The position numbers and the translations under genes are program-made. From a bacterium (GTDB lineage: Bacteria; Patescibacteriota; Dojkabacteria; B142; OLB20), in contig JAJTYI010000005.1 of NCBI GenBank assembly GCA_021463645.1, positions 64,680-128,679 of the forward strand: a DNA stretch of 64,000 nt. The letters run 5' to 3'. Below, one piece after another: positions 11,515-45,860 of the stretch. Under the pieces are notes generated by a model. The model had not been told where the DNA came from, searched no databases, and saw only the letters and a list, made by a program, of their open reading frames with translations. Position 1 is the first letter of the stretch; every line of letters starts with the position of its first letter.

Positions 11515-14500
11515 ATGAATGATCCGACTGTTATTCGAGAAGTTCCAGAGACACCTGATCTGGCTGAACAGAATCCTATTCCAGCAGTAGATGACGAAGC
11601 CCTAGCTTTATTTCTCGAGGCTGTAACTGAGGAGCCAGTTTCTGAAGCTACTCCAAAACCTAAACTGAATATTGTAGAAAAATCACTCATCCCAGAAGAA
11701 TTTCTAATCTCAGAGGATGATTCAACAGGCAGGATGAACAAACTTCGAACTTCCTTAAAGCAAACAGAAGAAAGAAACAAGTTACTGATAAGTGCAGCTA
11801 TTGACTCTATACAACTTCAAGCTACTCAGGAAGAATTAGCCTTAGAACCGGATGTAGATAGATTGTATACGACATACGAAAGTTACAGACTTGAAGTTCC
11901 ACAAGATGCTGATACTACAAGAGATCTGAAAGATACAAATATTTTAATTTTACAAGCTACAGTAAAGATAACTGAACTCGAAAGCGAACTTCAAATACTA
12001 GATGAGGAACAGCAGGAGTTAGGCGGAGAAGATGAGATAAAAGCATCTATTGATCAACTTAACGGGATTATAGATTTGAAGGGACATGCAACTGAAGAAG
12101 AAACCAAGACTTTAAATGAATTGTACGATAAGTGGAATCGGCATTATGAATTGAAATTTGCCAAATTAGCAAAAGCTAGAGAAATTCAAAAATTTAATTA
12201 TAGAAAAAAGGAACTAGGCTTTATTCGCCAAAAACTTATTGTATCAACCGAAGGTGATGTAACAAGAAATGTAATCAGAAACGGAGACGATAACTTAAAA
12301 GAAATAATTTCAGATGGTTTCCTTATCAAGACCATTCGACAGAAATATATTCAAGATCATGTCTTGGGTGAAATCGAAAGCGCATTTAATGATGGGATCA
12401 TGTCAGAAAACGAAATCCGTGGCATGTTTAACTTAATAAACGATTATGTAAAAAATGTAGACGGTCAGAATGCTGTTGAAAGAACGGCCCAAGAGGTTGA
12501 ATTAAAGAGGCTATTCAGTAAACATACTAATTTAAAAAAGACTGAACTGTTTTTCCATATTATCAAAGAAGGGTGGGACGGATCGGCCATCAGCATATTG
12601 ACTAAACAAACTTCCATGAATCAGATCAAGGAATTACAAGGTAGAGTTGATGAGCAGGTCGAAGGTGAAAGACTGAGAGATCTTTTGTCAACGAATAGAG
12701 AGGTCAGGAACCTTTTCAAAGAAAGTTGGTCCAACACTCAGCTGTATCATGCTTATCTACCATTCAAAATGCAAGATTTGTATGTCCACGATAATACTCT
12801 CGGTGTACCCTTTACATCTATTTGGCAGACAACCAGAGAAACACTACAGGCAAATGACTTGATGGCGACAGAATTGTCACAAATAGACGAAAAACTTCAA
12901 CATAATATAATCGTAGAAATATTGGATGGAAAAACCCATTCATTACGAGAATTAGAGTATTTTGATTCTCCACAAGTCATCAGGATTTTATTCATTTTAA
13001 GTACGAGTAATAAAGATTTTTTTTCAAGTGGAGAATCTTTTAGAATGCTGAGCCAGATATATGAAAGCGATAGATGGAACGAAGTGAGAGATAATGCGAT
13101 CAGCATGTATCCAAATTTAAAAGGTTGTATAGAATTATTTGAGAGTAAGAATCAAGAATCTAATCCTAATAATGTGATTATAGAAAACCTATTAAGGTCT
13201 GAATTGGCCACAGAACTAATTGACATAATACAAAATCCCGATGATAAGAAATATGCTCGTTTAGCCTCACAGTCTCTAGGTCTAGAATCATTACTCAACG
13301 TCTTGATAGACAATGGGAAGGTAGACATCAACTCAGTTCCCCATATTAAATTAATAATTGAAGGTCTTAATTCTCAGAATCGGGCTATGCTTGAAGACCA
13401 AAGCATAATTGAAGATGATTTATCTAAATTCAAATTTCATCAATCTCTCGTAGAAGCGTTATCAAACCAGGTTCTTGATGAACAAAATGTTGACAATAGC
13501 GTTCTTGCAAAATTTGAAGCAATTTCAAAATTTATTAATATAGAACTAAAGGACGTTGAGATAGATAGTAAAACGATTTTCAGCGTCTTTTCAGGTAAAG
13601 CTTTGAGGTTTGACAATGAAGTAGAACTTTTAACATTCCTCGATACTATAAGAACACACCCTGTTTTATTATCAAATCAAAGCTTATTCGAAAATTATTG
13701 CACTCTTTACAAAACAGAATCATCCTTGCAGTATGTACAATTGTTAGAAGATTGGAAAGATAAACCCGAAGATTTAGGGGCAATATACAAAGCTGTTGAG
13801 TATGGGTACATCAGAGCTGAAGAAGCACTAACATTGAATGATAGAATCGGAAAACTCAATCTCGGAACTGTCGCATTAAATTTATCTCTAGAATTTCCGG
13901 AATTATTTATCAGAGAAACTGAAGGAGTTGAATTGTTGCAAAAGTTAGTTATAGATGGAATAGATAACATAGGACATGATAATGATGTATTGCTTGGGAA
14001 ATATTTAATCAGTATCAAACGGGCAGAAAATATAAGGTTCAATAGGTTTATTGATCTTTTAATACAAATAGATATACAACAAATTAATTCTTTACTCGAT
14101 CAACCTGACAAAGGTCGAAAAGATCTAAATTGGAAGCAAGCATTCCTAGCACAGGGAATCATAGCTACTGGGGTAGTGGACGATAACTTTAAACTGAGCC
14201 CCACTGCATTGAAGAAGTTAGAAGGATTAGTATCTGAAGATGGTTTAAATGATAATCATCTTCGGTATCTAAGAGACGAATATTTAGACTTATTAGAAAA
14301 TGGTGATTTGGCTAACCCAACGGGATCATTAATGCGTTCTACCGAAATATTGCCAATTCTAGCCGAACAAATCAACCTTACACAGATTGCTACTCTGGGG
14401 TCATTCGTCAGAGCTATTACAGTTAATTCAGCTATAGAAACCACATCCCCGAGGACAACAAGAGAAATACAACAAGGATTGTTAATTATGGAGGGGAAAA

Positions 14501-14604
14501 TGAAAGAAGCCAAATGGGCAAATCTCGAGAAATCATACTTCTATGATATTTCAAAAAAATATTGGATACATCCCCTAGTCTGTTCTCATCGTATTTGGAA
14601 TTGA
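11515..14604 (+). CDS. Large acidic hypothetical protein (1029 aa), no recognisable domain
   Basis: A long uninterrupted ORF starting at ATG, with no TM segments, a helical E/K/L/D-rich composition, and N-terminus MNDPTVIREVPETPDLAEQNPIP. Confidence 0.7.
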   Translation: MNDPTVIREVPETPDLAEQNPIPAVDDEALALFLEAVTEEPVSEATPKPKLNIVEKSLIPEEFLISEDDSTGRMNKLRTSLKQTEERNKLLISAAIDSIQLQATQEELALEPDVDRLYTTYESYRLEVPQDADTTRDLKDTNILILQATVKITELESELQILDEEQQELGGEDEIKASIDQLNGIIDLKGHATEEETKTLNELYDKWNRHYELKFAKLAKAREIQKFNYRKKELGFIRQKLIVSTEGDVTRNVIRNGDDNLKEIISDGFLIKTIRQKYIQDHVLGEIESAFNDGIMSENEIRGMFNLINDYVKNVDGQNAVERTAQEVELKRLFSKHTNLKKTELFFHIIKEGWDGSAISILTKQTSMNQIKELQGRVDEQVEGERLRDLLSTNREVRNLFKESWSNTQLYHAYLPFKMQDLYVHDNTLGVPFTSIWQTTRETLQANDLMATELSQIDEKLQHNIIVEILDGKTHSLRELEYFDSPQVIRILFILSTSNKDFFSSGESFRMLSQIYESDRWNEVRDNAISMYPNLKGCIELFESKNQESNPNNVIIENLLRSELATELIDIIQNPDDKKYARLASQSLGLESLLNVLIDNGKVDINSVPHIKLIIEGLNSQNRAMLEDQSIIEDDLSKFKFHQSLVEALSNQVLDEQNVDNSVLAKFEAISKFINIELKDVEIDSKTIFSVFSGKALRFDNEVELLTFLDTIRTHPVLLSNQSLFENYCTLYKTESSLQYVQLLEDWKDKPEDLGAIYKAVEYGYIRAEEALTLNDRIGKLNLGTVALNLSLEFPELFIRETEGVELLQKLVIDGIDNIGHDNDVLLGKYLISIKRAENIRFNRFIDLLIQIDIQQINSLLDQPDKGRKDLNWKQAFLAQGIIATGVVDDNFKLSPTALKKLEGLVSEDGLNDNHLRYLRDEYLDLLENGDLANPTGSLMRSTEILPILAEQINLTQIATLGSFVRAITVNSAIETTSPRTTREIQQGLLIMEGKMKEAKWANLEKSYFYDISKKYWIHPLVCSHRIWN

Positions 14605-16454
14605 TGCACTCAATGTCTAAGAATGAACTGAAAACTTTTGTAAAAGAGGTCTACCCTTTATTTAATACAAAATTAATATTACTTCAATCTGATTCAGAAC
14701 CTGACCATATAAGAAACCTCGTCATTATCAGAGAAGATGTGAGAAGTTTTCATTCTGCATTGGCTAAAGGAGAAACAGACGGTGAACAGAAGAGACAACA
14801 ATTAACAGCAGAAATAGTGGGTCTCGTAAGAGAAAGATATGGGATTAAAGATCTCCCAGAAACACTTACCTCTGTACAGTATCGATCTATTAACAATTTC
14901 GCAATGTATCTTACCAATATGGAGGGAAGAACTGAACTAAAAGAAAATATATTGGCTCTTTATTTAGCATTAACCTTAAAAGGCGAATGGAAGCAGCTAA
15001 GGAGTGGAAATAATATCAATCCACAAGTTCTCCTGAAAGAAGATAAAGCTTTAACACTAGAACCAGTAGTCAGGTCTCAAGAGATTGTAAATTCACGTAT
15101 TTACGGAATATTAGGAGTAGAGGCTGAAAGCCAGGAGAGATTCCAAGCAATACTTCAAAGCGATGAAATGGTACGCTCCGAAGGCATGTTACAAACAACA
15201 GATGTGAAATTAATGAATTTAATCAGTAACCTTCGAATATTTGACGATCCAGATATATTTAGTGACGAGTTGGATTTAGTTAGGTATAACCTACTCGGTA
15301 AATACGGGGATAAAACTTTGAATAAGAGTGTAGCTATGATATACAGGAGTTTATTAAATGGTAGTGTCACTCTAGGAGAAGAAGAGCAACAGATCCGAAC
15401 TGAAATTGAAGCTGCTTTGAAAAAAAGTAACCTAGAATTCACTGTGGGAAATCTGAAACAATATTTCCAGCAAGGTTTAATACCTTTTGTGAATATTTAT
15501 AAAATAAAACAAACGATAGTAGAGGGTGATGTTGAGAGAAGAATTGAAGATCTCCGCCAATCTCTTTTACCCCCAAGCAAAATCATAGATATCTTTTCAA
15601 AATTGGGAGAGGATTTCAGACCTCAGTCAGGTGCTATGGCGTTAACACAAGATGTAAGCTTTTTGGAAAATTTAGTTGTAAAGAAGGAGGATGATTTAAC
15701 ACAAGAAGAACTTGATGAAATTTCAAAATATTTAGCACCTATTAGAGAACAATTAATCGAACTCGAAGAAATTAATGTTATCCTTGCTGGTAAAACCAAA
15801 CCATATAATGATACAGACGATTCTGTCAGAGGAGATCTGCTAAAGACACAAATTAAAATGATCGACGAAATCGTTAAATCCAAAAACGAGATTGAACCCC
15901 TGGTAAGCACTTCAACGAACGACTTAAATACAATTATTGAAAATTTGCGTGCTTGTTTGTCCTGCAAAACCGCCGAAATAAATAATAGTACGAATCTGAC
16001 TTTCGGAGAATCGTACAAATTTTATCTCTATACTGCTGCAGCTTCCCAAAGCGAAGGTAGTATTGCTGATCAAATCGTGTACTTCGTGCCAGTAAAAAAG
16101 TCCGGGGAGGAAGATGAGATGTCGTTCGTTTTTGATCAAGTTTACGGTAGTTCCACACCACTGATATTAAGCAATCATGTCAACACTATCATAGCTAAAA
16201 TGACCAAGTTGAGGGAAGCATTCCCTGACATGAAACTTTCCATTTTTATCCCAAAAAACACACTGACCTCTGTAGGAACATCTGCTGAAATCTTGAAAGA
16301 TCAATATTTGACTTCCGATTTGACAGTATCAGATGAGTCATTAACTGTGGATATTCCACAATCAGAATTTGGTGATCATTATGTTGAATTTGGGGGCGAA
16401 GCACGTGAGCCCGGACAAAGAGAAGTGCAAGGTGTAATGCTACGAATGCTTTAG
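14604..16454 (+). CDS. Large hypothetical protein (~616 aa from ATG 14604), translationally coupled to the upstream gene
   Basis: The track ORF begins at TTG 14562. The first ATG (14604-14606) overlaps the upstream stop TGA (14602-14604) as TGATG. No motifs recognised. Confidence 0.65.
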   Translation: MHSMSKNELKTFVKEVYPLFNTKLILLQSDSEPDHIRNLVIIREDVRSFHSALAKGETDGEQKRQQLTAEIVGLVRERYGIKDLPETLTSVQYRSINNFAMYLTNMEGRTELKENILALYLALTLKGEWKQLRSGNNINPQVLLKEDKALTLEPVVRSQEIVNSRIYGILGVEAESQERFQAILQSDEMVRSEGMLQTTDVKLMNLISNLRIFDDPDIFSDELDLVRYNLLGKYGDKTLNKSVAMIYRSLLNGSVTLGEEEQQIRTEIEAALKKSNLEFTVGNLKQYFQQGLIPFVNIYKIKQTIVEGDVERRIEDLRQSLLPPSKIIDIFSKLGEDFRPQSGAMALTQDVSFLENLVVKKEDDLTQEELDEISKYLAPIREQLIELEEINVILAGKTKPYNDTDDSVRGDLLKTQIKMIDEIVKSKNEIEPLVSTSTNDLNTIIENLRACLSCKTAEINNSTNLTFGESYKFYLYTAAASQSEGSIADQIVYFVPVKKSGEEDEMSFVFDQVYGSSTPLILSNHVNTIIAKMTKLREAFPDMKLSIFIPKNTLTSVGTSAEILKDQYLTSDLTVSDESLTVDIPQSEFGDHYVEFGGEAREPGQREVQGVMLRML

Positions 16455-22290: not shown

Positions 22291-23100
22291 TTGATATTTA
22301 ATGTGGATATTTCCGTATTACAGTTAAATTTTTGTCAGGGGCAATATCTAGAAAACTTCTCCACCCTGATCGGTCAATATGGACCTGATATTATTACTCT
22401 GCAGGAAGTAACCGGTGGGGAATATTCCCGTAGTTGCCTTGATAATTATGATTTTCTACGTAGAGAACTGGGTGAAATCTACCACATGTCTCTAATTCCT
22501 AGATTTCATAATGAAGGAGATCCTAGTAGCTATTTTGCAAATGTAACTTTGACAAGGAAAGAATTGGGAAGAGCTAATCACAGAGTTGTTAGATTAAATT
22601 ATCATGAGACCACAGATACTCCTACAGTACCCAAGGAAGGTTACCTCGATCCTATTCGTTATCCCTACTCTGTTTTAGTAACAAGAGTAAATGCACTTAC
22701 TATCTTCAATGGACACTTCACAATTACTCAGGATAAAGATCCTGGCTATAGTCCTTTAAAGATTTTTAGGAACCAAATACTTTTAGATGAAATTAAAAGT
22801 ACGGAGGGACCATGGATTCTGGCAGGGGATTTTAATACTCTTGCACACGATGAAAGCGTAACTATGCTTGTTCCTGAGGGTGGTCATAATCTTATACTGG
22901 AACATGGAATAAATAATACGATAAATCCAATTTCTCATCCTGAATGGTCAGCTATTCGTATGCGAAACGAGGAAAGAGGTGTGAATTGCGATAATATAAT
23001 AACAAGCAGAGGAATTGAAACTATTTCATTCCGTGTTCTAAATGGCAATGTTGTATCAGATCATTTACCTTTGTTGATGGAGGGAAGATTAAGTTTTTAG
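22291..23100 (+). CDS. Endonuclease/exonuclease/phosphatase (EEP) family protein
   Basis: ITLQEV, ILAGDFN and the C-terminal SDHLPL are EEP catalytic motifs. The start codon is uncertain: the track uses TTG 22291. Confidence 0.8.
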   Translation: MIFNVDISVLQLNFCQGQYLENFSTLIGQYGPDIITLQEVTGGEYSRSCLDNYDFLRRELGEIYHMSLIPRFHNEGDPSSYFANVTLTRKELGRANHRVVRLNYHETTDTPTVPKEGYLDPIRYPYSVLVTRVNALTIFNGHFTITQDKDPGYSPLKIFRNQILLDEIKSTEGPWILAGDFNTLAHDESVTMLVPEGGHNLILEHGINNTINPISHPEWSAIRMRNEERGVNCDNIITSRGIETISFRVLNGNVVSDHLPLLMEGRLSF

Positions 23101-23167
23101 CGAGGATTAGATTGAGTTTGAGCAAAAGTAATCAGGGAAAATATACGTAGAAAATTCATCACTTGGC

Positions 23168-23290
23168 GGGAATGGCCACAAGCCACAACTCATGTTAAGT
23201 TCAAACTTCGGAACTCTGTGAACGAAACTTGGAAGCCATGACTTCATCGGGAAAGACTAGTCCAGGGTCTTCTTCAATTCCCAATAAAAA
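23168..23290 (+). repeat. Interspersed intergenic repeat, copy C (long)
   Basis: GGGAATGGCCACAAGCCACAACTCATGTTAAGTTCAAACTTCGGAACTCTGTGAAC... The first ~50 nt are nearly identical to copy D. Confidence 0.65.
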
Positions 23291-23309
23291 CCGATAGTAT
23301 TCTAAGCAT

Positions 23310-23339
23310 TTGACACACAGGCTGCAAGAGTTGTAAAAT
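23310..23339 (+). promoter_or_regulatory. Sigma-70-like promoter for the T-box leader
   Basis: TTGACA (23310-23315), an 18-nt spacer, then TAAAAT (23334-23339) preceded by TG. It lies about 20 nt upstream of the proposed Stem I. Confidence 0.4.
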
Positions 23340-23346
23340 CAATGCA

Positions 23347-23624
23347 ATTGAATAAAACTAGAAGAAAAGTAGCTTAATTGTTGATCACTTAGCAAGTCAA
23401 AGTAGCTGAAAGTTTGACAGAAGTCATAATTAAGTAAAAGAGCTTCTTTTTAATTTAACCGAAGAAAGCATTTTGCAAGTAGGTTAATAATAAAAATGAT
23501 AAATTGATTGATTTATTATTTTATTAATTAAGTATAGAGGTTAACTCTATAGAAGAAAGATGGTACCACGAGAAGGCTCTCGTTCTTTCACTAAATAATT
23601 AGTGTAAGAGCGGGAGCTTTTTTT
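23347..23624 (+). promoter_or_regulatory. T-box riboswitch leader (antiterminator/terminator switch)
   Basis: Antiterminator parts: helix A1 GAAAGA (23555-60) pairs with TCTTTC (23584-89). A 7-nt bulge TGGTACC lies at 23561-67. Helix A2 ACGAGA (23568-73) pairs with TCTCGT (23578-83) around loop AGGC. A competing terminator pairs GCTCTCGTTCTTTCAC (23576-91) with GTGTAAGAGCGGGAGC (23602-17), followed by T7. A Stem III hairpin TATAGAG/CTCTATA sits at 23533-51, and a Stem I candidate CTTAATT(23373-79)/AATTAAG(23428-34). Confidence 0.75.
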
Positions 23625-23639
23625 ATTATTAAAAATACA

Positions 23640-23696
23640 ATGCAAAAAATTAATTTGAGAAGAAACAGAACTAAACATAGGCGGAAGCTCGTTTGA
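23640..23696 (+). CDS. Candidate Arg-rich leader peptide (18 aa, MQKINLRRNRTKHRRKLV)
   Basis: ATG 23640 to TGA 23694-96, with 5 of 18 codons Arg (AGA x3, AGG, CGG). The 3' end (CGGAAGC, 23682-88) is complementary to the 5' arm of the terminator that follows. No obvious Shine-Dalgarno. Confidence 0.3.
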   Translation: MQKINLRRNRTKHRRKLV

Positions 23697-23712
23697 TCTC
23701 TGTTATCAATTT

Positions 23713-23739
23713 AGGCTTCCGAAAGGAAGCCTTTTTTTA
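23713..23739 (+). terminator. Intrinsic terminator 16 nt upstream of the argH start
   Basis: AGGCTTCC, a GAAA loop, GGAAGCCT, then a T-run. Confidence 0.7.
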
Positions 23740-23754
23740 TTTTATTAATTAATT

Positions 23755-25137
23755 ATGAAAAAAACTAAAACAAGCCACGACAAACTATGGGGGAATGCAT
23801 TTACAGAGTCTCCTGAAAAATTAATGATGGAATTTACTTCAAGTCATGACGTTTACCCTATCAATCCAGCTGATTCTGTATTGATACCTTATGATATAAA
23901 ACAAAATATTGCCCAAGTGAAAATGCTCTATAAACAGAAGATATTAAACAAGAAAGAGCATAATAATTTACTAGAAGGATTAAACCAATTATATGGTCTC
24001 TGGGAAAAAGGGGAATTTGTATTAGATCCAATGTTAGAAGACGTTCACACAAATATAGAGAATTGGCTAAGTAAAAAATATGGGATCGATGTTGGAGGGA
24101 AAATACACACAGGACGTTCACGAAATGACCAAGTAGTCACAGATATGTATTTATATCTTCATGACCAAATCCAATACACAATCAAATCAATCCAACTTCT
24201 GAACAAGAGTTTATATAAAAGTGCAAAGAAATATCAGGATACAATTTGTCCGGGTTATACACACCATCAACATGCGGTAGTGACTAGTCTTGGACTTATT
24301 CTACATTCATTTAATATTTCTTTTAAGCGCGATATTAAAGGCTTGCAAGATCTTGCACAAAAGTATAACTACTCCCCTCTTGGCTCAGGTGTAGGTTACG
24401 GAACTTTAATCAATATTGATCCGACATTTTCAGCGAAAGAACTTGGTTTTGAGAGAAAGTTCAAAAATCCAATTGATGTAATATCTAATCGAGGTGAATT
24501 TGAAGCAGCTCTAGCATTCCAAATTTGTCAATTTCTGAATCATGCTTCAAGTCTTGCACAAACATTTATTCTCTTCTCAACTACCGAGTTTGGGTTCTTG
24601 AAACTTGCAGACCATTATTCAACGGGTAGTTCAGCCATGCCACAAAAGAAAAATCCTGATGCTTTGGAGTTAATCAAATCTACTGCTTCCGTCGCAAACA
24701 GTAACGTTTCAGCATTAATGCAAATTACAAAGGGAAACTTAATTGGATATAACCGCGACACTCAAGAAACTAAACACATTGTGTATCACCTATTATCAAA
24801 AGTTGAACTAATTCCAAAAATCCTTAGTGGAATTATCGAGACAATTACAGTATTTCCAAAGGTCCTGGAAAACCAGGCTAACAAAGGATTTATTAATTCT
24901 CTTGGATTAATGGAGATGATTATAAACGAGACAGGTTTACCAATGCGAAAAGCCAAAATTTTAATCGAGTTAAGCATAAAAAAATCTGTTGAAAATGGTT
25001 TCTCTGACAAAGTGGATTTTATATCTTTCAAAGAAGCGCAACAACTCTCAGGAATTATTTGTGATATTTCGGAAGAAAGTTTTTACGTGTGGCAAGATGC
25101 GAATTTTCAATTTAATCAATTAGATTTTAATTATTAA
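23755..25137 (+). CDS. argH: Argininosuccinate lyase
   Basis: GRSRNDQV and the fumarate-lyase signature GSSAMPQKKNPD are present; 460 aa. Confidence 0.95.
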   Translation: MKKTKTSHDKLWGNAFTESPEKLMMEFTSSHDVYPINPADSVLIPYDIKQNIAQVKMLYKQKILNKKEHNNLLEGLNQLYGLWEKGEFVLDPMLEDVHTNIENWLSKKYGIDVGGKIHTGRSRNDQVVTDMYLYLHDQIQYTIKSIQLLNKSLYKSAKKYQDTICPGYTHHQHAVVTSLGLILHSFNISFKRDIKGLQDLAQKYNYSPLGSGVGYGTLINIDPTFSAKELGFERKFKNPIDVISNRGEFEAALAFQICQFLNHASSLAQTFILFSTTEFGFLKLADHYSTGSSAMPQKKNPDALELIKSTASVANSNVSALMQITKGNLIGYNRDTQETKHIVYHLLSKVELIPKILSGIIETITVFPKVLENQANKGFINSLGLMEMIINETGLPMRKAKILIELSIKKSVENGFSDKVDFISFKEAQQLSGIICDISEESFYVWQDANFQFNQLDFNY

Positions 25138-25207: not shown

Positions 25208-26461
25208 ATGAATACAATCACAAAATATCATAAAGTTTCTTCCTATGAAGCCAATATAGGAGAATTCGACAAGGTATTACTTCTCTATTCGGGAGGACTT
25301 GATACTTCTATCATGATTAAATGGCTTCGGGACAACTACAAAATTGATGTTTACACATTAACCATGGACATTGGTCAACAAAAAGATGATTTGGAGTCAA
25401 TAAAACAAAAAGCATTGAAACTTGGTGCTAAAGAAGCAATCATCATTGATGCGAAAGATGATTTTGCAGAATTAGTTATCTCGAAAGGTATCAAAGCGAA
25501 TGCGAGTTACCAAGGTGACTATCATTTATCAACCCCGATGGGTCGTGTGATAATTTCTATGAAAGTTGTCGAAGTATGCAAAAAGAAAAACATTTTTTGC
25601 GTTGCTCATGGTAGTACTGGAAAAGGTAACGATCAGGTACGATTCGAATCGTACATTACAACATTAAATCCAAAAATAAAAATAATTGCGCCCGTTCGTG
25701 AATGGATGATGGATCGAAATGAGGAAATTAAATATGCCTTGAAGAACAAAATACCTACTCCGGCGAATTTTGATTTTCCTTACAGTGTGGACGATAACAT
25801 GTGGGGAATGACATGGGAAGGAGGCGAAATCGAAACACCAGAAGAGATAGCAAGAATCGAGGAATTTTTGACGACTTATACATTAGCCGAAAAGTCTCCC
25901 GAAAAACCGGAAATTATCAAAATAGAATTCAAGAATGGTCTTCCTGTAAGACTTAACGGTGAGGAATTAAAATTATCTGATTTAATCATCAAACTTAATG
26001 GGATTGCTGGAAAACATGGTGTAGGCGTTGTACATATGTTGGAAGATCGTTTAATTGGTGTAAAGAATCGAGGTGTATATGAGCTTCCAGCAGCACATGT
26101 AATTATCAAAGCACACAAATTTTTAGAACAATATGTTTCAACTCGAAACTTGAATGAATATAAGAGTATGCTTGATATTAAATGGGGGTATATGTGTTAT
26201 GGTGCCCTATGGTTTGACCCTTTAATGGATGCGATTAATGCTTTCAATGATAAAGTGAACGAAATTGTGGAAGGTACCGTGACTATAAAACTTCACAAAG
26301 GGAAAGCAGAAACAATTGCAATAAAATCACCATACGGTTTAATAAACACCTCCTTTAACAATGATGAAGGTCATAACTTCAATGTGAATGCAAGTGCAGG
26401 TTTCATTGAAATTTATTCGTTACAAATGAATAAAGCTTATAATAATAAGTTTCTGAAATAG
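25208..26461 (+). CDS. argG: Argininosuccinate synthase
   Basis: YSGGLDTS (ATP-binding PP-loop), HGSTGKGNDQVRFE, and GRV/EDR motifs; 417 aa. Confidence 0.95.
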   Translation: MNTITKYHKVSSYEANIGEFDKVLLLYSGGLDTSIMIKWLRDNYKIDVYTLTMDIGQQKDDLESIKQKALKLGAKEAIIIDAKDDFAELVISKGIKANASYQGDYHLSTPMGRVIISMKVVEVCKKKNIFCVAHGSTGKGNDQVRFESYITTLNPKIKIIAPVREWMMDRNEEIKYALKNKIPTPANFDFPYSVDDNMWGMTWEGGEIETPEEIARIEEFLTTYTLAEKSPEKPEIIKIEFKNGLPVRLNGEELKLSDLIIKLNGIAGKHGVGVVHMLEDRLIGVKNRGVYELPAAHVIIKAHKFLEQYVSTRNLNEYKSMLDIKWGYMCYGALWFDPLMDAINAFNDKVNEIVEGTVTIKLHKGKAETIAIKSPYGLINTSFNNDEGHNFNVNASAGFIEIYSLQMNKAYNNKFLK

Positions 26462-26927: not shown

Positions 26928-27054
26928 GCCCAACTTCGCATAAGCTACGTTGGGCTCTCATTCTTCGTCAACTTTTCACTACATTCAAAACCAATAATAC
27001 TGGTGGCTTGCCATTCGAAGCTGTTTTGAACGAAGTGAAAAATAGCGAAGAATG
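26928..27054 (-). other. Nested inverted repeats immediately 3' of ssrA (possible terminator or att relic)
   Basis: Three inverted-repeat pairs: GCCCAAC(26928-34)/GTTGGGC(26949-55); CATTCTTCGTCAACTTTTCAC (26959-79) against GTGAAAAATAGCGAAGAATG (27035-54); inner TTCAAAAC/GTTTTGAA. Confidence 0.35.
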
Positions 27055-27512
27055 GAGATGGCGGGAATCGAACCCGCGTCCAAACGATACAGCGACTTAC
27101 ATACTACAAGCTTAGTTGATTTAATTTGAAACAGTTTGATCGAAATCAACAAAAGCCAAACTGCTTTGATTTATAAGTGCTTCGATTTTAAGCATAAATC
27201 AAACTTAAAACCTGCAACTTGACTAAGTTTCTCCCCAACCCTCCCGCCAAGTGAGGAGAGAATGAGAAGGTTGCTTACTTGTCCGCCGAAGCTTACGCGA
27301 AGGCGGGATTAATTAGGCAACAGCAAAGTTGAATTGAGGTTCGACATTGAAAAATGCTACTACTCTATCAACGAAGCCTTGAATTTTGGTTTTGACGCTT
27401 AAGTCAATTTCCGATTGCTCGGAATATCCTCCCATTTTTAACGAAGTGGCAGGATAAAGCACTTCGGCTTGCTGTAAATCACGGTCATCATCTGTCGAAG
27501 CCGATCATCCCC
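27053..27512 (-). ncRNA. ssrA: tmRNA (transfer-messenger RNA)
   Basis: The minus-strand RNA begins GGGGATGATCGGCTTCGACAGATGATGACCG and ends GGACGCGGGTTCGATTCCCGCCATCTCCA. The acceptor pairing GGGGAUG/CAUCUCC includes a G-U at position 3. An internal open frame ends ...QFNFAVA-TAA (stop at 27313-27315), consistent with a proteolysis tag. The CCA end is not encoded. Confidence 0.9.
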
Positions 27513-41220: not shown

Positions 41221-42060
41221 ATGTATATAGCAATCGATGTAGGCGGAACAAAAACCGCATTCGCGAAAATTGACAAATTAGACAAACCTACCATCAGTAG
41301 TAAAGAGACTATATCCACACCCCAGTCTTATGATGAAGCACTTGAAAAAATTAGCATACAGATAGAAAAGTCTAGCAAATGGCAAAAGATAGAGGGAATT
41401 TCTATCGCACTCCCAGGTACTGTCGGTAATGAAAAAATCGAATTATTAACAAATTTACCAGACTGGAATCACAAACCACTTTTTAACGATATCTCTAAAA
41501 AATTCAATACAAAAGTAATCATGCGTAATGATGCCGTAGCCACTGCACGTGCTGAGAGATATTTCGGACTTGCAAAAAACGAAATTAGATATTTATATTG
41601 CATCATAGGTACTGGATTTGGAGCCACTTACGTTCACAGAGTAGGAGATAAATTTTTAGAGTTACCCTTAGAGCCTGAATATATGATAGTAAACTCACAT
41701 GGGACTCACAGAAATCATTTTCACACCCCTGGATTGCTTGGAGCTTATGCGACTGGAGCCGTGATACAAGAAAAAACCGGAATTCACTCATTGGCAAGCT
41801 TAGAAGATAGTGATCCAATTTGGAATGAGATGGTACAATACCTAGGAATCGGTTTGAATAACCTTGTTACACTATTCAAACCACCTGTAATTATTTTCTC
41901 AGGTGGTATAATTGTGCACAGAAAATTCTTATTAAATTTACTTCGAATGGAATTAGCAAAATATGTTGAGTACTTGCCCCAACCAACTCTCAAAATAACA
42001 GAGTTTGGTGATGACGCCAGCCTATATGGCGCGATTTCATTGCTTTACGAATTAAAATAA
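41221..42060 (+). CDS. ROK-family protein (sugar kinase-like)
   Basis: IAIDVGGTKT (ATP-binding), VIMRNDAVATARAE and GTGFG motifs. The stop overlaps the valS start (TAATG). Confidence 0.65.
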   Translation: MYIAIDVGGTKTAFAKIDKLDKPTISSKETISTPQSYDEALEKISIQIEKSSKWQKIEGISIALPGTVGNEKIELLTNLPDWNHKPLFNDISKKFNTKVIMRNDAVATARAERYFGLAKNEIRYLYCIIGTGFGATYVHRVGDKFLELPLEPEYMIVNSHGTHRNHFHTPGLLGAYATGAVIQEKTGIHSLASLEDSDPIWNEMVQYLGIGLNNLVTLFKPPVIIFSGGIIVHRKFLLNLLRMELAKYVEYLPQPTLKITEFGDDASLYGAISLLYELK

Positions 42061-45000
42061 TGCTTCCCAAAGGACCATATCAACCACAAACTACAGAGGA
42101 AGAAATTTTAGATTTTTGGCTGAAAAACAAATTCTATTCTCCCGAATATAAATCGCAAAAGGAACTTTCAACCACAAACGACGAGAACCGCGAGACATTT
42201 TCTATTGTGTTACCTCCTCCAAATGCAAATGGGAACCTTCACTTAGGACACATGTCCGGTTATGTTTATCAAGATTTGATGGGTAGATATTATCGTATGA
42301 AAGGGAAAAAAGTTCTGCTGTTGCCGGGAAAAGACCATGCAGGTATTTTAACTGAAGTCGTTTTTGAAAAAGAACTCGAGAAAGAAGGTTTATCGAAAAA
42401 AAGTTTAGGTCGAGAAGAATTCTATAAACGTTGTTATGACTTCTGCATTAAAAACTCTGAGAATGCTCGAAGGCAGGAAAGGAACATTGGTTTATCAGCA
42501 GATTTTGATAGAGAATTATTTACACTTGATCCTAAAATTGTTGATGAGGTTTTAAAAGCTTTCGAATTAATGTATGAAGACAAACTTGTATATCGCGATA
42601 AAAGAATAATTAATTGGTGTCCTAGATGTCAGTCTGCACTTGCAGATATCGACACTGAATTCAAAGATTCAGTTTCCCCTTTCTTCTACTTTAAATACGG
42701 ATTTCTAGATCCCGAAATAGATGCAATAAAAATTAAAAATGACTTCTCACAGATGGATGAAGTTAAATGGATTTTTGAAAGATCGTCTAGCCCGGACGGT
42801 AAAGAAATTTATCCATTTGCAGTAGGCACAATTGATGGTGGATACCAAATTGAAACAGGGGAAATGATTGTACATTGTATTGGTTATGATAACGAAAAGT
42901 TAATTAAAGGAGATGTAATAGTCGGCAAACCGTATGCAATTATGATGAGGCTAAATAAAAAGTTCAGTTTAATACTTTCCAACCCAAAATTTGATGGGGA
43001 TTTGGACAAAGAATTAACGAAGCTTTGGAAAGTTGCTGAATCAAAGAAAAGAGATGCTGGAATTCATTTTATAAAATTCGAGGACTTTCCAGAGGATAAA
43101 TATTACACGAATGGTTTCGTTCTCGGTACTGTAAGACCAGAGACCAAATTTGGAGATACTGCGCTTGCAGTTGACCCCGATGATGGAAGATACAAAGACT
43201 TCGTTGGAAAAGAATTTGAAGTTAAGACATTGTTGGGGACATCTAAAATAAAAGTTATTGCAGATAATGCAGTAGATGAAAGTTTTGGAACTGGAATGGT
43301 CAAAGTCACTCCTGCACATTCACCCGAGGATTGGGACATAGCCAAACGTCACCCCGATGAAGCTTTTCCAGAGAAGCAGGTCATAGACTTCAATGGCAAA
43401 ATGAATCACTTAGCTGGCAAATATGAAGGATTATCAGTGAAGGAAGCACGCAAAGTGATGTTACAAGATATGAAAACGAATGGAATGCTCGTTTACTTAG
43501 ATGAAAATTATGAGAATAGGATTCGTATCTGTGAAAGATGTAAACACCCAATAGAACCCCTTATCTCTTACCAATGGTTTGTAGACACAGAGCCATTAAA
43601 AAAAGAAGCAAAAAGATTAGTTGAAGTAGGATTAACTGAAATCATGCCTGAAGGCAAAAAGAAAACTTATTTACAATGGATGGAGAGTCAGGAAGATTGG
43701 TGCATCACGAGACAATTATGGTGGGGATATCGAGTACCAGTTTGGTACAAAGGTGAACATTCTCAATACATCACCGAAACTGGTGAAGTGAAAGAAAAGA
43801 TCGGCGATAAAGTTATAAACAATCCCGAAGATTATGAGGGATTAATCTATGTTGGACATGATAATCCGAATGTTCCCCAAATTTATTTGATCCCAGGTAA
43901 ACATGGTTATATGTCGCGGAAAATTTTTCCCGAGATAGTAGAAAAATATCCAAATGCAGTCACAGCGGAAATTGAAAACATTGATGAACCATCACAAGAA
44001 GATTATGCCAATGGTCTCAAAGAATATGATTTAAAGAATTCGGTCATCATTGCACATTCTATGGGTTGTTCTGCAATTATTAATTATATCTCTGAAAAAA
44101 ATATTCCAATTGAAAAACTGGTATTAATTGCACCAAAATTAATTTTTAAGGAAAAAGATAAAGCCAAGAGATACACTAAAATGCTCGAAGATTTGAGATT
44201 TGACAAACTTAAGACTTTGGTAAAGGAATTAGTGATAATTTATTCTGATAATGACGAGCATGTGACTCTAGAGGATATAAATGAATCAATCAAAAAACAA
44301 TTACCCTATGCAGAGTATGCTTTACAAAAAGATGCAGATCATTTTGCAACTCCAAAACTTGATATCTTTCCGCAATATTTATGGAAATTATTGGAAAATC
44401 AAAATAAATATGGGGAAATCTCAGTCCTAAGACATGGAGAGACAGAATACAACAAACTAGGCAAATTCCACGGAATTACCGATATTGAACTCAACCAAAT
44501 TGGAGAACAACAAGCCCAGAATGCAATTGAAAAACTTGACTCTAACTATGATGTAATTATTACCTCTCCACTAAAACGAGCACATCAGACAGCAAATATT
44601 GTAAATGAAAAACTTGGACTAGAAATCATAGAAAATGAATTGTTAAAAGAAAGAAATTTCGGCAACTTAGAAGGACTTACCTGGGAAGAATTTACTGACA
44701 AACATCCTGAAGAGGCTTCAAAAAATAATATAGATTTCCAGCCAGCACTTGAAAAAGGCGAATCGATTGAAGCAGTTGAAAAGAGAGTTGAAGAGTTTAT
44801 CGATTGGTTGAGAAAATCGGGTTATAAGAATCCATTAATTGTGACACATGCAGGCATAATTAGAATATTCGAGAGAAAATTAAACAATTTAACTCCAGAG
44901 CAATCTAGAGAAAATGATCCAAAAAATCTTGAACTGCGGAATTATTCTCTAAACAAACCAGAATGGATTCAAGACGAAGACGTACTTGACACATGGTTCT

Positions 45001-45860
45001 CCTCTGGGCAATGGCCATATTTAACCTTAATGGTCAAGGAAGGTGACTTTGAGGAGTTCTACCCTACCCAGGTCATGGAAACTGGCTGGGATATATTGTT
45101 ATTCTGGGTTACCAGAATGATGCTATTAAACCCATATAGAGCAAAGAAATTAAACACCGACGCTACAGATGAACAAATCGTCCCTTTCAAAGATGTGTAC
45201 TTACATGGATTGGTACTAGATAAAAACGGGGTCAAGATGAGTAAGTCAAAAGGCAACGGAATCGATCCTTTCGAAATGATGCAAAAATACGGAACTGATG
45301 CGTTGAGATATAGTTTTGTCAAAGGAAATTCAGCTGGTCAAAATTATCGTTTATATGAAGAGAAAGTTTCGTCTAATCGCAATTTCTGCAATAAAATCTG
45401 GAATGCATCCAAGTTCGTATTATTTAACATAGAAGATAGTGCTGACAAATTAATAAATTCGGACAGGTCCGAATTAGAATTCACACAAGACGATACTGAA
45501 ATGTTGGAACATATTGATAATTTAATTGAGGAAACAACCAGGAGATTAGATGAATTCAAATTCGGTATCGCAGCTGACGAACTTTATGAATCATTCTGGC
45601 ATTATTTTGCGGATATTTACCTAGAGAAAATTAAAACAAGACTTTACACGAAAGACCGTGAAGGAAACCCAATTAACACATCTGATGAGGAGATAAAATC
45701 AAGATTTGCAGCCCAATGGTTGATACTATACTCGCTAGAAACATATCTAAAATTACTACATCCATTTATTCCATTTCTAACTGAGAAAATCTGGCTGTCG
45801 TTACCGAAAAGAGAGGAAGAGGCTGAGACAATAATGTATTCGAATTGGCCAGAATCCTGA
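42060..45860 (+). CDS. valS: Valine--tRNA ligase with large in-frame insertions (1266 aa)
   Basis: PPPNANGNLHLGHM (HIGH), TVRPETKFGDTALAV, DWCITRQLWWGYRVPVWY, QDEDVLDTWFSSGQWPY and GVKMSKSKGN (KMSKS). About 400 aa lie between VPVWY (~43734-43748) and QDEDVLDTWF (~44970), where E. coli ValRS has about 35. Confidence 0.9.
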   Translation: MLPKGPYQPQTTEEEILDFWLKNKFYSPEYKSQKELSTTNDENRETFSIVLPPPNANGNLHLGHMSGYVYQDLMGRYYRMKGKKVLLLPGKDHAGILTEVVFEKELEKEGLSKKSLGREEFYKRCYDFCIKNSENARRQERNIGLSADFDRELFTLDPKIVDEVLKAFELMYEDKLVYRDKRIINWCPRCQSALADIDTEFKDSVSPFFYFKYGFLDPEIDAIKIKNDFSQMDEVKWIFERSSSPDGKEIYPFAVGTIDGGYQIETGEMIVHCIGYDNEKLIKGDVIVGKPYAIMMRLNKKFSLILSNPKFDGDLDKELTKLWKVAESKKRDAGIHFIKFEDFPEDKYYTNGFVLGTVRPETKFGDTALAVDPDDGRYKDFVGKEFEVKTLLGTSKIKVIADNAVDESFGTGMVKVTPAHSPEDWDIAKRHPDEAFPEKQVIDFNGKMNHLAGKYEGLSVKEARKVMLQDMKTNGMLVYLDENYENRIRICERCKHPIEPLISYQWFVDTEPLKKEAKRLVEVGLTEIMPEGKKKTYLQWMESQEDWCITRQLWWGYRVPVWYKGEHSQYITETGEVKEKIGDKVINNPEDYEGLIYVGHDNPNVPQIYLIPGKHGYMSRKIFPEIVEKYPNAVTAEIENIDEPSQEDYANGLKEYDLKNSVIIAHSMGCSAIINYISEKNIPIEKLVLIAPKLIFKEKDKAKRYTKMLEDLRFDKLKTLVKELVIIYSDNDEHVTLEDINESIKKQLPYAEYALQKDADHFATPKLDIFPQYLWKLLENQNKYGEISVLRHGETEYNKLGKFHGITDIELNQIGEQQAQNAIEKLDSNYDVIITSPLKRAHQTANIVNEKLGLEIIENELLKERNFGNLEGLTWEEFTDKHPEEASKNNIDFQPALEKGESIEAVEKRVEEFIDWLRKSGYKNPLIVTHAGIIRIFERKLNNLTPEQSRENDPKNLELRNYSLNKPEWIQDEDVLDTWFSSGQWPYLTLMVKEGDFEEFYPTQVMETGWDILLFWVTRMMLLNPYRAKKLNTDATDEQIVPFKDVYLHGLVLDKNGVKMSKSKGNGIDPFEMMQKYGTDALRYSFVKGNSAGQNYRLYEEKVSSNRNFCNKIWNASKFVLFNIEDSADKLINSDRSELEFTQDDTEMLEHIDNLIEETTRRLDEFKFGIAADELYESFWHYFADIYLEKIKTRLYTKDREGNPINTSDEEIKSRFAAQWLILYSLETYLKLLHPFIPFLTEKIWLSLPKREEEAETIMYSNWPES

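Follow-up and report, generated by a model that had tools for sequence, protein, structure and literature searches.

A T-box and a probable arginine leader-peptide attenuator in series upstream of argH-argG in a Dojkabacteria bacterium

The genes argH and argG of an uncultured Candidatus Dojkabacteria bacterium (Patescibacteria/Candidate Phyla Radiation (CPR)), whose products take citrulline to arginine, are on balance likely to be controlled by two transcription attenuators arranged in series, a T-box riboswitch followed by a leader-peptide attenuator, both of which would report the charging of tRNA-Arg(UCU). The two genes and their leader lie in a 64,000-nt stretch of contig JAJTYI010000005.1 (assembly GCA_021463645.1, positions 64,680 to 128,679 of the forward strand), here called the window, whose numbering is used throughout except where a related sequence is named (Table 1). 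A preliminary description of this DNA had placed a T-box antiterminator/terminator switch at 23310-23624, upstream of argH and argG. This captured the T-box half of the leader and missed the second half (23640-23739), which is the more unusual part.

There is very little doubt that 23353-23624 is an Arg-specific T-box. With permissive filters, the Rfam T-box covariance model (CM), RF00230, aligns to 23353-23590 with its positions 1-219 all matched and a score of 52.3 bits; this search, which the preliminary description had suggested, is significant both in a local 701-nt scan (E 1.6e-10) and in a scan of the 64 kb against all 4227 Rfam families (E 1.5e-08). The antiterminator folds as had been predicted, with the sequence and coordinates of the preliminary description: GAAAGA (23555-60) and UCUUUC (23584-89) form one helix, ACGAGA (23568-73) and UCUCGU (23578-83) form a second helix closed by an AGGC loop, and the two helices flank the 7-nt UGGUACC bulge. 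The 3′ strands of both helices are reused in the 5′ arm of terminator 1, and the two structures are therefore mutually exclusive, as had been proposed. The terminator itself is much more stable than expected by chance, none of 200 shuffled sequences being as stable, and its stem comprises 18-22 bp with one mismatch and not 16 bp. Comparison with related leaders reveals compensatory changes in both antiterminator helices. Specifically, helix A2 is ACGAGA/UCUCGU in the window and GUGAGA/UCUCAC in the relative L091, and the last pair of helix A1 is A-U in the window and in L087 and G-C elsewhere. The Stem III hairpin of the preliminary description is recovered in the CM alignment, and within Stem II the segments GAAGAAA and AAGUA are invariant in the four sequences that have this stem; a Stem IIA/B pseudoknot would fall in 23489-23530.

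These related leaders come from metagenome contigs that encode the closest ArgH proteins (49-64% identity), eight in all. Each of the eight carries a full-length RF00230 match directly 5′ of argH (L085, 75.7 bits; L084, 70.1; L082, 66.9; L081, 65.4; L083, 65.4; L091, 62.8; L087, 62.6; L089, 37.1), and in each a strong terminator overlaps the antiterminator. Together with the window match and the overlap of its own antiterminator and terminator, this supports the claim of the preliminary description that a T-box transcription-attenuation switch precedes argH-argG. The MetRS and ValS of the window belong to 90%-identity clusters in which the named members are Candidatus Dojkabacteria bacterium. 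More remote ArgH relatives carry the labels Patescibacteria or Microgenomates, and a scan of genome contigs returned, among the matches listed, only ArgH proteins of about 35% identity, which are useless for comparing leaders.

To which tRNA the T-box responds depends on the codon displayed in the Stem I specifier loop. The Stem I candidate of the preliminary description (23373-23434) corresponds to the upper part of the stem; the real Stem I extends from about 23361 to 23446. For the solved glyQS T-boxes, as published for Stem I of G. kaustophilus, the order on the 3′ side of this loop is reportedly GAA, codon, purine, and then the closing helix. The equivalent 3′ side in the window reads AAA-AGA-G-CUUC (23436-46), in which CUUC pairs with GAAG at 23361-64, and this places the codon AGA, for arginine, at the specifier position. 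The same position holds AGA followed by a purine in L081, L082, L084, L085, L087 and L091, and CGC followed by G (GAA-CGC-G) in L089. Read one register back, the first case would give AAG (Lys) and the second ACG (Thr), whereas AGA and CGC both encode arginine, which makes this an Arg-specific T-box. Farther up the stem, the AG-bulge columns of the model are occupied by AGCAAG (23391-96) and those of the distal loop by GUAGCUGAAAG (23402-12). Both are kept in L087, L089 and L091, yet they deviate from the AGAGA and GGUGNRA consensus sequences of this motif, in which interdigitated T-loops stack on the tRNA elbow.

Other codons were considered. The preliminary description had offered two candidates, GUC (23423-25) and an upstream AGA (23419-21), and had entertained a Val-type T-box in front of arg genes. 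Both triplets lie outside the specifier loop in the CM alignment, GUC on the distal 3′ side of Stem I, and neither is conserved in the relatives. A T-box that reads a tRNA other than tRNA-Arg could nonetheless be imagined, as a GAA-GUC-A sequence is present at 23420-26 (Val) and AAAAGAG holds AAA and AAG (Lys) in registers that overlap AGA. The position and lack of conservation of GUC exclude the Val type, and the Lys registers are inconsistent with L089, where the codon position is CGC and the preceding register ACG; by comparison, the codon that stands before the purine and the closing helix is AGA in seven sequences and CGC in L089. Under the control of this leader stand argH and argG, joined in L091 by argS. 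A non-Arg specificity is thus very improbable. The UGGU of the bulge predicts A73 as the tRNA discriminator base, or G73 through a wobble pair, as would suit a bacterial tRNA-Arg.

Two observations count against the assignment of an Arg T-box. First, none of the nine leaders, at 52.3 bits for the window and 37-76 bits for the relatives, reaches the RF00230 gathering score of 93 bits, although this score is an operational annotation threshold and not a biological feature. Second, no tRNA gene was found in the 64-kb window and only tRNA-Gln in the related loci, and thus no tRNA-Arg(UCU) gene with its discriminator in either. The low score, together with a high composition-bias term (22.3 bits) and the lack of a K-turn, could be taken to mean that there is no T-box at all and that an AT-rich leader with a terminator resembles one by chance. 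Against this stand the match of the model from 1 to 219 at its whole-window E-value, the independent matches of eight orthologous leaders, the less AT-rich of which reach 70-76 bits, the exact UGGUACC bulge and the overlap of antiterminator and terminator. The matches in the relatives and the whole-window E-value effectively refute a chance resemblance, to which we give almost no weight. We note that a default Rfam scan of the window reports a tmRNA only and not the T-box; because the nine leaders fall below the Rfam threshold, standard annotation pipelines would miss them. The Srn266, telomerase and miRNA families also produced matches, all of them chance fits to the terminator hairpin (E 0.06 or worse).

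Judged by its sequence, this T-box appears atypical, and the word canonical in the preliminary description applies to its kind and not to its details. It scores below the Rfam threshold. No K-turn is found in Stem I: its six columns are missing from the CM alignment, and neither strand of the stem base carries UGA or GA, whether in the window or in any of the relatives. The S-turn GAA is degenerate in the window, which has AAA/UAA where L081-85, L087, L089 and L091 have GAA. The relatives depart further from the model. In L081-L085 the T-box lacks Stem II, the IIA/B domain and the K-turn, and a linker of about 22 nt joins Stem I to Stem III (L081 2615-2792, L082 2624-2805, L084 434-610, L085 1915-2091). 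In L091 (1097-5759) the same Arg T-box heads an operon of argH, argG, a hypothetical gene of 199 aa and argS, so that a single tRNA-Arg sensor would serve both the salvage enzymes and arginyl-tRNA synthetase.

Several other observations were made in more distant leaders. A joint scan found no T-box before argH in the remoter Patescibacteria L212-L214 (45-46% identity) at E <= 0.1; in rescans L213 gave a weak RF00230 match (17.5 bits, E 0.07) and L214 none. T-box-like cores are nevertheless visible before argH in two of these sequences, GAGGUGGUACCGUG in L213 (2259-2506) and AGGGUGGCACCACG in L214 (about 2095-2235). The L213 leader may be of the translational type, its 3′ helix CCCUCUUUC/GGGAGAGGG covering the ribosome-binding region and the GTG start. 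In the L214 leader, which is without an Rfam match, helix A2 is interrupted by a large insertion and a terminator is also present. Divergent T-boxes may thus be more widespread in Patescibacteria than Rfam detects.

Downstream of the T-box, the 130 nt between the U-run of terminator 1 and the argH start codon (23755) hold a short open reading frame (ORF) and a second terminator. Based on models of their folding and on comparison with the relatives, we consider that they probably form a ribosome-mediated Arg leader-peptide attenuator. Homologous ORFs are present in L081, L082/L083, L084 and L085, each of exactly 23 codons despite divergent N-terminal halves; the predicted peptides are, in this order, MKIITTTQINTVTRRRNFIWRLL; MNNINKIKIESVSRRNSFKRRLI; NRHNQIIINLVARRRGFKWRLN (TTG start); and MSQLKQITINLVSRRRSFKWRLI. 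All contain an in-frame run of AGA codons, three in L081, L084 and L085 and two in L082. In the relatives a GGCUUCC/GG(A/G)AGCC terminator follows the ORF, and the stem of terminator 2 is conserved in all five sequences that carry the element. In each of these five, the frame that reads the AGA run is open for 15-25 codons upstream of the run and has a start codon, whereas the other two frames are open for 0-4 codons; the chance of such an open AGA frame is 0.04-0.10 per sequence.

The arrangement of pairing segments around this ORF resembles that of an attenuator. In every sequence the best complement within the ORF to the 5′ arm of terminator 2 (GGAGGCU in the relatives, GGAAGCU in the window) ends 3-4 nt before the stop codon, and the predicted duplexes are stable (-9.8 to -10.6 kcal/mol; P = 0.004-0.017 each against dinucleotide shuffles). 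Transcripts made to end short of segment 4 fold into the 2:3 structure in all five sequences, at -11.5 (window) to -17.7 kcal/mol, which is comparable to the -14.2 to -19.6 kcal/mol of the terminator 2 hairpins. If the stretch that a ribosome at the stop codon would cover is masked, terminator 2 alone remains in the fold. A 1:2 hairpin (AGCUUC/GGAGGCU) is predicted immediately after the AGA run in L082, L084 and L085, and is weak in L081; in the window this role would fall to a different, extended hairpin (23662-23707) with AGA codons in its 5′ arm. These results come from folds of the individual sequences with shuffle controls, as column-wise covariation on MAFFT alignments of the second element was abandoned when segment 2 of the window was misplaced.

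The leader ORF is not preceded by a Shine-Dalgarno site. The same is true of 38 of the 41 ORFs of at least 120 aa in the window, argH included, in which not even a 4-mer of the Shine-Dalgarno core occurs at -20 to -4 and the upstream sequence is A/U-rich. This genome thus appears to start translation without Shine-Dalgarno pairing, and because 38 of 41 window genes have none, the lack of a site before the leader ORF is no counter-argument to its translation. AGA is the major Arg codon of the window genes (52% of Arg codons). No Rfam leader family matches the second element, Phe_leader reaching chance level only (17.7 bits, E 3.4). A metagenome scan with the pattern AGGCTTCC-N3-7-GGRAGCCTYTTTT returned at least 120 loci, 11 of which passed a filter for an upstream UGGUACC core or AGAAGA; the best 8 of these 11 are gene-end terminators of unrelated organisms, and none of the matches listed is a new member of the family.

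Several features of the second element weigh against a leader-peptide attenuator. Only five distinct sequences carry it, and the terminator-2 arms are nearly invariant, with no true covariation between them. The window ORF has fewer codons than its homologues and has diverged from them, the position of its 1:2 element does not correspond to that in the relatives, and MAFFT fails to align its segment 2. Additional Arg codons, AGG and CGG (23679-84), lie inside or beside segment 2, where a stalled ribosome would favour termination. In a fold of the truncated transcript without a ribosome, 2:3 is also the best pairing; the branch of the model in which a lack of translation gives termination therefore depends on folding kinetics. 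Finally, L087, L089 and L091 have the T-box without a leader ORF, which means that the second stage is dispensable.

A rival explanation takes the T-box as the only regulator and the second hairpin as an intrinsic terminator kept in reserve, as a back-up or fail-safe, or as an element of RNA stability; the Arg-codon ORF would then be fortuitous and untranslated. In its favour, the T-box suffices in L087, L089 and L091, which are without the ORF, no Shine-Dalgarno site precedes the ORF, the terminator-2 arms show no covariation, and purine-rich AGAAGA could be kept as RNA. However, an unconditional second terminator immediately before argH would silence the operon, and Shine-Dalgarno sites appear to be dispensed with in this genome anyway. 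Fortuity is also difficult to reconcile with an AGA frame that alone is open in five of five sequences, with an ORF length that stays at 23 codons in four diverged sequences, or with a terminator-arm complement that always lies 3-4 nt before the stop. We regard this explanation as unlikely.

A second alternative accepts translation of the ORF and assigns its effect to the peptide. Arginine-sensing arrest peptides are known in fungi. If the conserved C-terminal sequence (F-K-W/R-R-L-I/L-stop) acted as such a peptide, high free arginine would stall the ribosome near the stop codon, segment 2 would be covered and transcription would terminate. This idea draws on C-terminal residues that are more conserved than the N-terminal ones in L081-L085 and on the terminator state that results in the masking model when a ribosome is held at the end of the ORF. 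Yet RNA pairing explains this conservation, as the codons concerned fall on RNA segments 1 and 2, the window peptide (…TKHRRKLV) is without the motif, and the conserved tandem AGA run is left without a role. We therefore see arrest by the peptide as improbable. If true, the second stage would sense free arginine and not the supply of Arg-tRNA. The leader would integrate tRNA charging, through the T-box, with free arginine, through the nascent chain, and would join a riboswitch to what in bacteria corresponds to the arginine attenuator peptide of fungi.

Two related leaders show other elements in the corresponding region. L212 (2205-2330) has no T-box; a small ORF, MNYLSSTSRRTRSAATAGVVDSVEIK (AGA CGA ACA AGA), is followed by a terminator, AACCCCGC-AUAG-GCGGGGUUUUUU, shortly ahead of argH. 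The pair may represent an independent attenuator of the Arg leader-peptide kind, with a less convincing geometry and in a single sequence. In L087 (5900-5945) no leader ORF separates the T-box terminator from argH; the interval instead has a tandem TTGCAA motif (GGAAATTGCAAGTTGCAAATTGCAATTTGC), which could be a protein operator.

From the sequences, alternative structures, conservation and open frame, we infer tRNA binding, translation of the ORF, ribosome stalling and both termination events, which in the two-attenuator model would be ordered as follows. Transcription would start at about 23346. In the first stage, uncharged tRNA-Arg would pair with the leader at two places, through its anticodon UCU at the AGA specifier (23439-41) and through its free NCCA end at UGGU (23561-64); these contacts would stabilise the antiterminator and allow RNA polymerase to pass terminator 1. 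Charged tRNA would provide no such stabilisation, and transcription would end at 23618-24. The second stage would exist only on transcripts that extend past terminator 1, on which a ribosome would translate the 18-codon leader ORF. If Arg-tRNA were scarce, the ribosome would stall on AGA-AGA-AAC-AGA (23658-69), mask the 5′ arm of the leader hairpin and free GGAAGCU (23683-89), which could then pair with the 5′ arm of terminator 2 and let the polymerase read into argH. If Arg-tRNA were ample, the ribosome would reach the stop codon (23694-96) and cover GGAAGCU, and terminator 2 would form. Without translation, terminator 2 would form as well, the extended hairpin holding segment 2. Because both terminators must be passed, the output would be multiplicative, with a low leak and a steep response to arginine limitation.

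The promoter of the preliminary description, TTGACA-N18-TAAAAT, matches the sigma-70-type consensus closely. All eight relatives have a promoter at the equivalent place before the T-box, most clearly L081, L082, L084, L085, L087 and L089, in which TTGAC(A/T)-17/18-TAnnAT can be read directly. The identification of the downstream genes as argH and argG is borne out by their Lyase_1 and Arginosuc_synth domains. Contigs from at least seven independent samples carry the leader sequence base-identical except for one polymorphism, G>A at 23540 in the Stem III loop, which is the only strain variation found at this locus; because the same leader recurs in these independent samples, it is no assembly artefact. 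The organism occurs in runs such as SRR23814903, DRR438483, SRR35759037 and JGI 3300009868. Arginine biosynthesis is classically under ArgR-type repressors; inspection by eye at ~23630-23660, with no formal test made, revealed no convincing palindrome of an ArgR/AhrC operator (ARG box). Elsewhere in the window, no T-box was detected before metG, valS or cysS at E <= 0.01.

Table 1. Features of the argH-argG leader and downstream genes in the window
Feature	Coordinates	Strand	Basis
Sigma-70-type promoter, TTGACA-N18-TAAAAT	23310..23339	+	11/12 consensus positions matched
T-box leader RNA (Stem I, Stem II, Stem III, antiterminator)	23353..23590	+	Full-length RF00230 match
Stem I: basal helix GAAG/CUUC, S-turn AGUA (23368-71), helix GCUUAAUU/AAUUAAGU, AG-bulge AGCAAG (23391-96), distal loop 23402-12	about 23361..23446	+	CM alignment, fold, conservation in an alignment with relatives
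Specifier codon AGA (Arg), then purine G23442	23439..23441	+	CM-alignment position; relatives AGA/CGC at the same place
Stem II with GAAG...AAGUAG S-turn signature	23454..23488	+	Aligned to Stem II part of RF00230
Stem III hairpin UAUAGAG-GUUAA-CUCUAUA	23533..23551	+	CM alignment
T-box antiterminator: A1 GAAAGA/UCUUUC, 7-nt bulge UGGUACC (23561-67), A2 ACGAGA/UCUCGU	23555..23589	+	Fold, -11 kcal/mol
Terminator 1: stem 23576-23617, U7 23618-23624	23576..23624	+	-29 kcal/mol, z = -8.7, 0/200 shuffles as stable
Putative leader ORF, 18 codons, MQKINLRRNRTKHRRKLV-stop	23640..23696	+	ATG 23640 to TGA 23694-96; translation; homologous ORFs in relatives
Putative regulatory codons AGA AGA AAC AGA (AGA at 23658, 23661, 23667)	23658..23669	+	In-frame AGA runs conserved
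Extended hairpin of untranslated leader (putative anti-antiterminator, 1:2 role)	23662..23707	+	Minimum free energy fold of free RNA; 5′ arm holds AGA codons; hairpin ties up some of segment 2
Segment 2, GGAAGCU, pairs with GGCUUCC 23714-23720 = putative antiterminator 2	23683..23689	+	Duplex -10.6 kcal/mol, P = 0.004 vs shuffles; ends 4 nt before stop
Terminator 2: AGGCUUCC-GAAA-GGAAGCCU (23713-32) + U7	23713..23739	+	-14.2 kcal/mol; sole terminator-scan match in 22900-24000
argH (argininosuccinate lyase)	23755..25137	+	Pfam Lyase_1, E 2.8e-52; homologues named argininosuccinate lyase
argG (argininosuccinate synthase)	25208..26461	+	Pfam Arginosuc_synth + Arginosuc_syn_C

Three further loci of the window deserve mention. 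The tmRNA gene found by Rfam (27050-27512, minus strand; 117.5 bits, E 2.9e-45) has large insertions relative to the model, and ARAGORN reports neither a tRNA nor a tmRNA in the window despite this match. The valyl-tRNA synthetase (42060-45860, plus strand; 1266 aa) has a histidine-phosphatase/alpha-ribazole-phosphatase-like domain (TIGR03162, residues 789-950) inserted between the ValS halves. Two overlapping ORFs on the plus strand, at 11515-14604 (1029 aa) and 14562-16454 (630 aa, recorded as a 616-aa protein on the same contig), correspond to one 1646-aa protein on related contigs; the split therefore points to a frameshift, a pseudogene or an assembly error near 14562-14604.

How do the two elements compare with known systems? 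The T-box is like the transcriptional T-boxes of RF00230 (B. subtilis tyrS and glyQS) in its Stem I specifier loop (AGUA ... codon and purine), the S-turn signature of Stem II, Stem III, the 7-nt UGGN-ACC bulge, a two-helix antiterminator that competes with an intrinsic terminator, and its placement before amino-acid genes that match the codon. Arg-specific T-boxes occur on argS in Firmicutes. Unlike known T-boxes, the window leader is found in a CPR host, scores 52 bits against a threshold of 93, is without a K-turn in Stem I, and carries AAA/UAA for the S-turn GAA; in addition, its target is the argH-argG salvage pair and not a tRNA synthetase, and it is followed by a second, different attenuator. 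A comparative-genomics survey found T-boxes in Firmicutes, Actinobacteria, Chloroflexi, Deinococcus-Thermus and Geobacter (PMC3766115), and our full-text searches found no literature linking T-box riboswitches with Patescibacteria/CPR. The leaders described here place T-box riboswitches in the CPR, bacteria with tiny genomes whose gene regulation is little known, where T-boxes may be under-counted, as the standard Rfam threshold misses them. Their structures also have implications for current models. According to one review, nearly all T-boxes have K-turns, and it is a question whether a T-box can function in their absence; for ileS of S. aureus, a T-box without a K-turn has been proposed (PMC7583486). 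The absence of Stem II has been described for glycyl T-boxes only and is ascribed to their strong GGC:GCC pair (PMC7583486), whereas the Arg T-boxes of L081-L085 lack Stem II despite a weak AGA:UCU pair. Both the K-turn-less T-boxes of this clade and the loss of Stem II in L081-L085 thus bear on the structural models now in use (PMC7583486).

The second element is organised like the trpL, hisL and pheL attenuators of E. coli and the His-leader attenuators of Firmicutes (PMC9413887, PMC2965389): a short ORF contains a run of codons for the amino acid of the pathway, its stop codon lies beside segment 2, and alternative 1:2, 2:3 and 3:4 pairings end in an intrinsic terminator just before the first structural gene. 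Unlike these attenuators, it uses arginine AGA codons, has no Shine-Dalgarno site and no Rfam family, and stands downstream of a T-box instead of replacing one. We found no description of a leader-peptide attenuator for arginine biosynthesis in the literature searched. If the proposed reading is true, an Arg-codon attenuator on arg genes would be a new member of this class, in a genome without Shine-Dalgarno initiation. The nearest Arg-codon leader ORF is orf34 of the Salmonella speF leader, where, when arginine is limiting, a ribosome that pauses on successive Arg codons likewise selects between alternative mRNA structures (PMC6386406). The speF system differs in its Rho-dependent termination, unmasking of a ribosome-binding site (RBS), sensitivity to RNase G and polyamine gene, and it has no T-box (PMC6386406).

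T-boxes and leader peptides have been presented as alternatives that are used in different lineages (PMC2965389, PMC9413887), and the tandem arrangements described so far combine a T-box with another T-box or with a ppGpp riboswitch (PMC7583486). As far as could be found, no T-box has been described that stands in series with a leader-peptide attenuator responding to the same amino acid, although each part is of a known kind. Such a leader would be a two-stage filter, in which uncharged tRNA is measured directly and charged tRNA through the ribosome, and it would let both modes of sensing be compared on the same signal. Like tandem riboregulators that act as logic gates, it would consist of two terminator-based switches in series, both of which must be ON for expression. 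Unlike them, its stages would differ in mechanism, one depending on tRNA binding and the other on ribosome stalling, and would apparently read the same tRNA, so that one signal is sharpened and not two combined.

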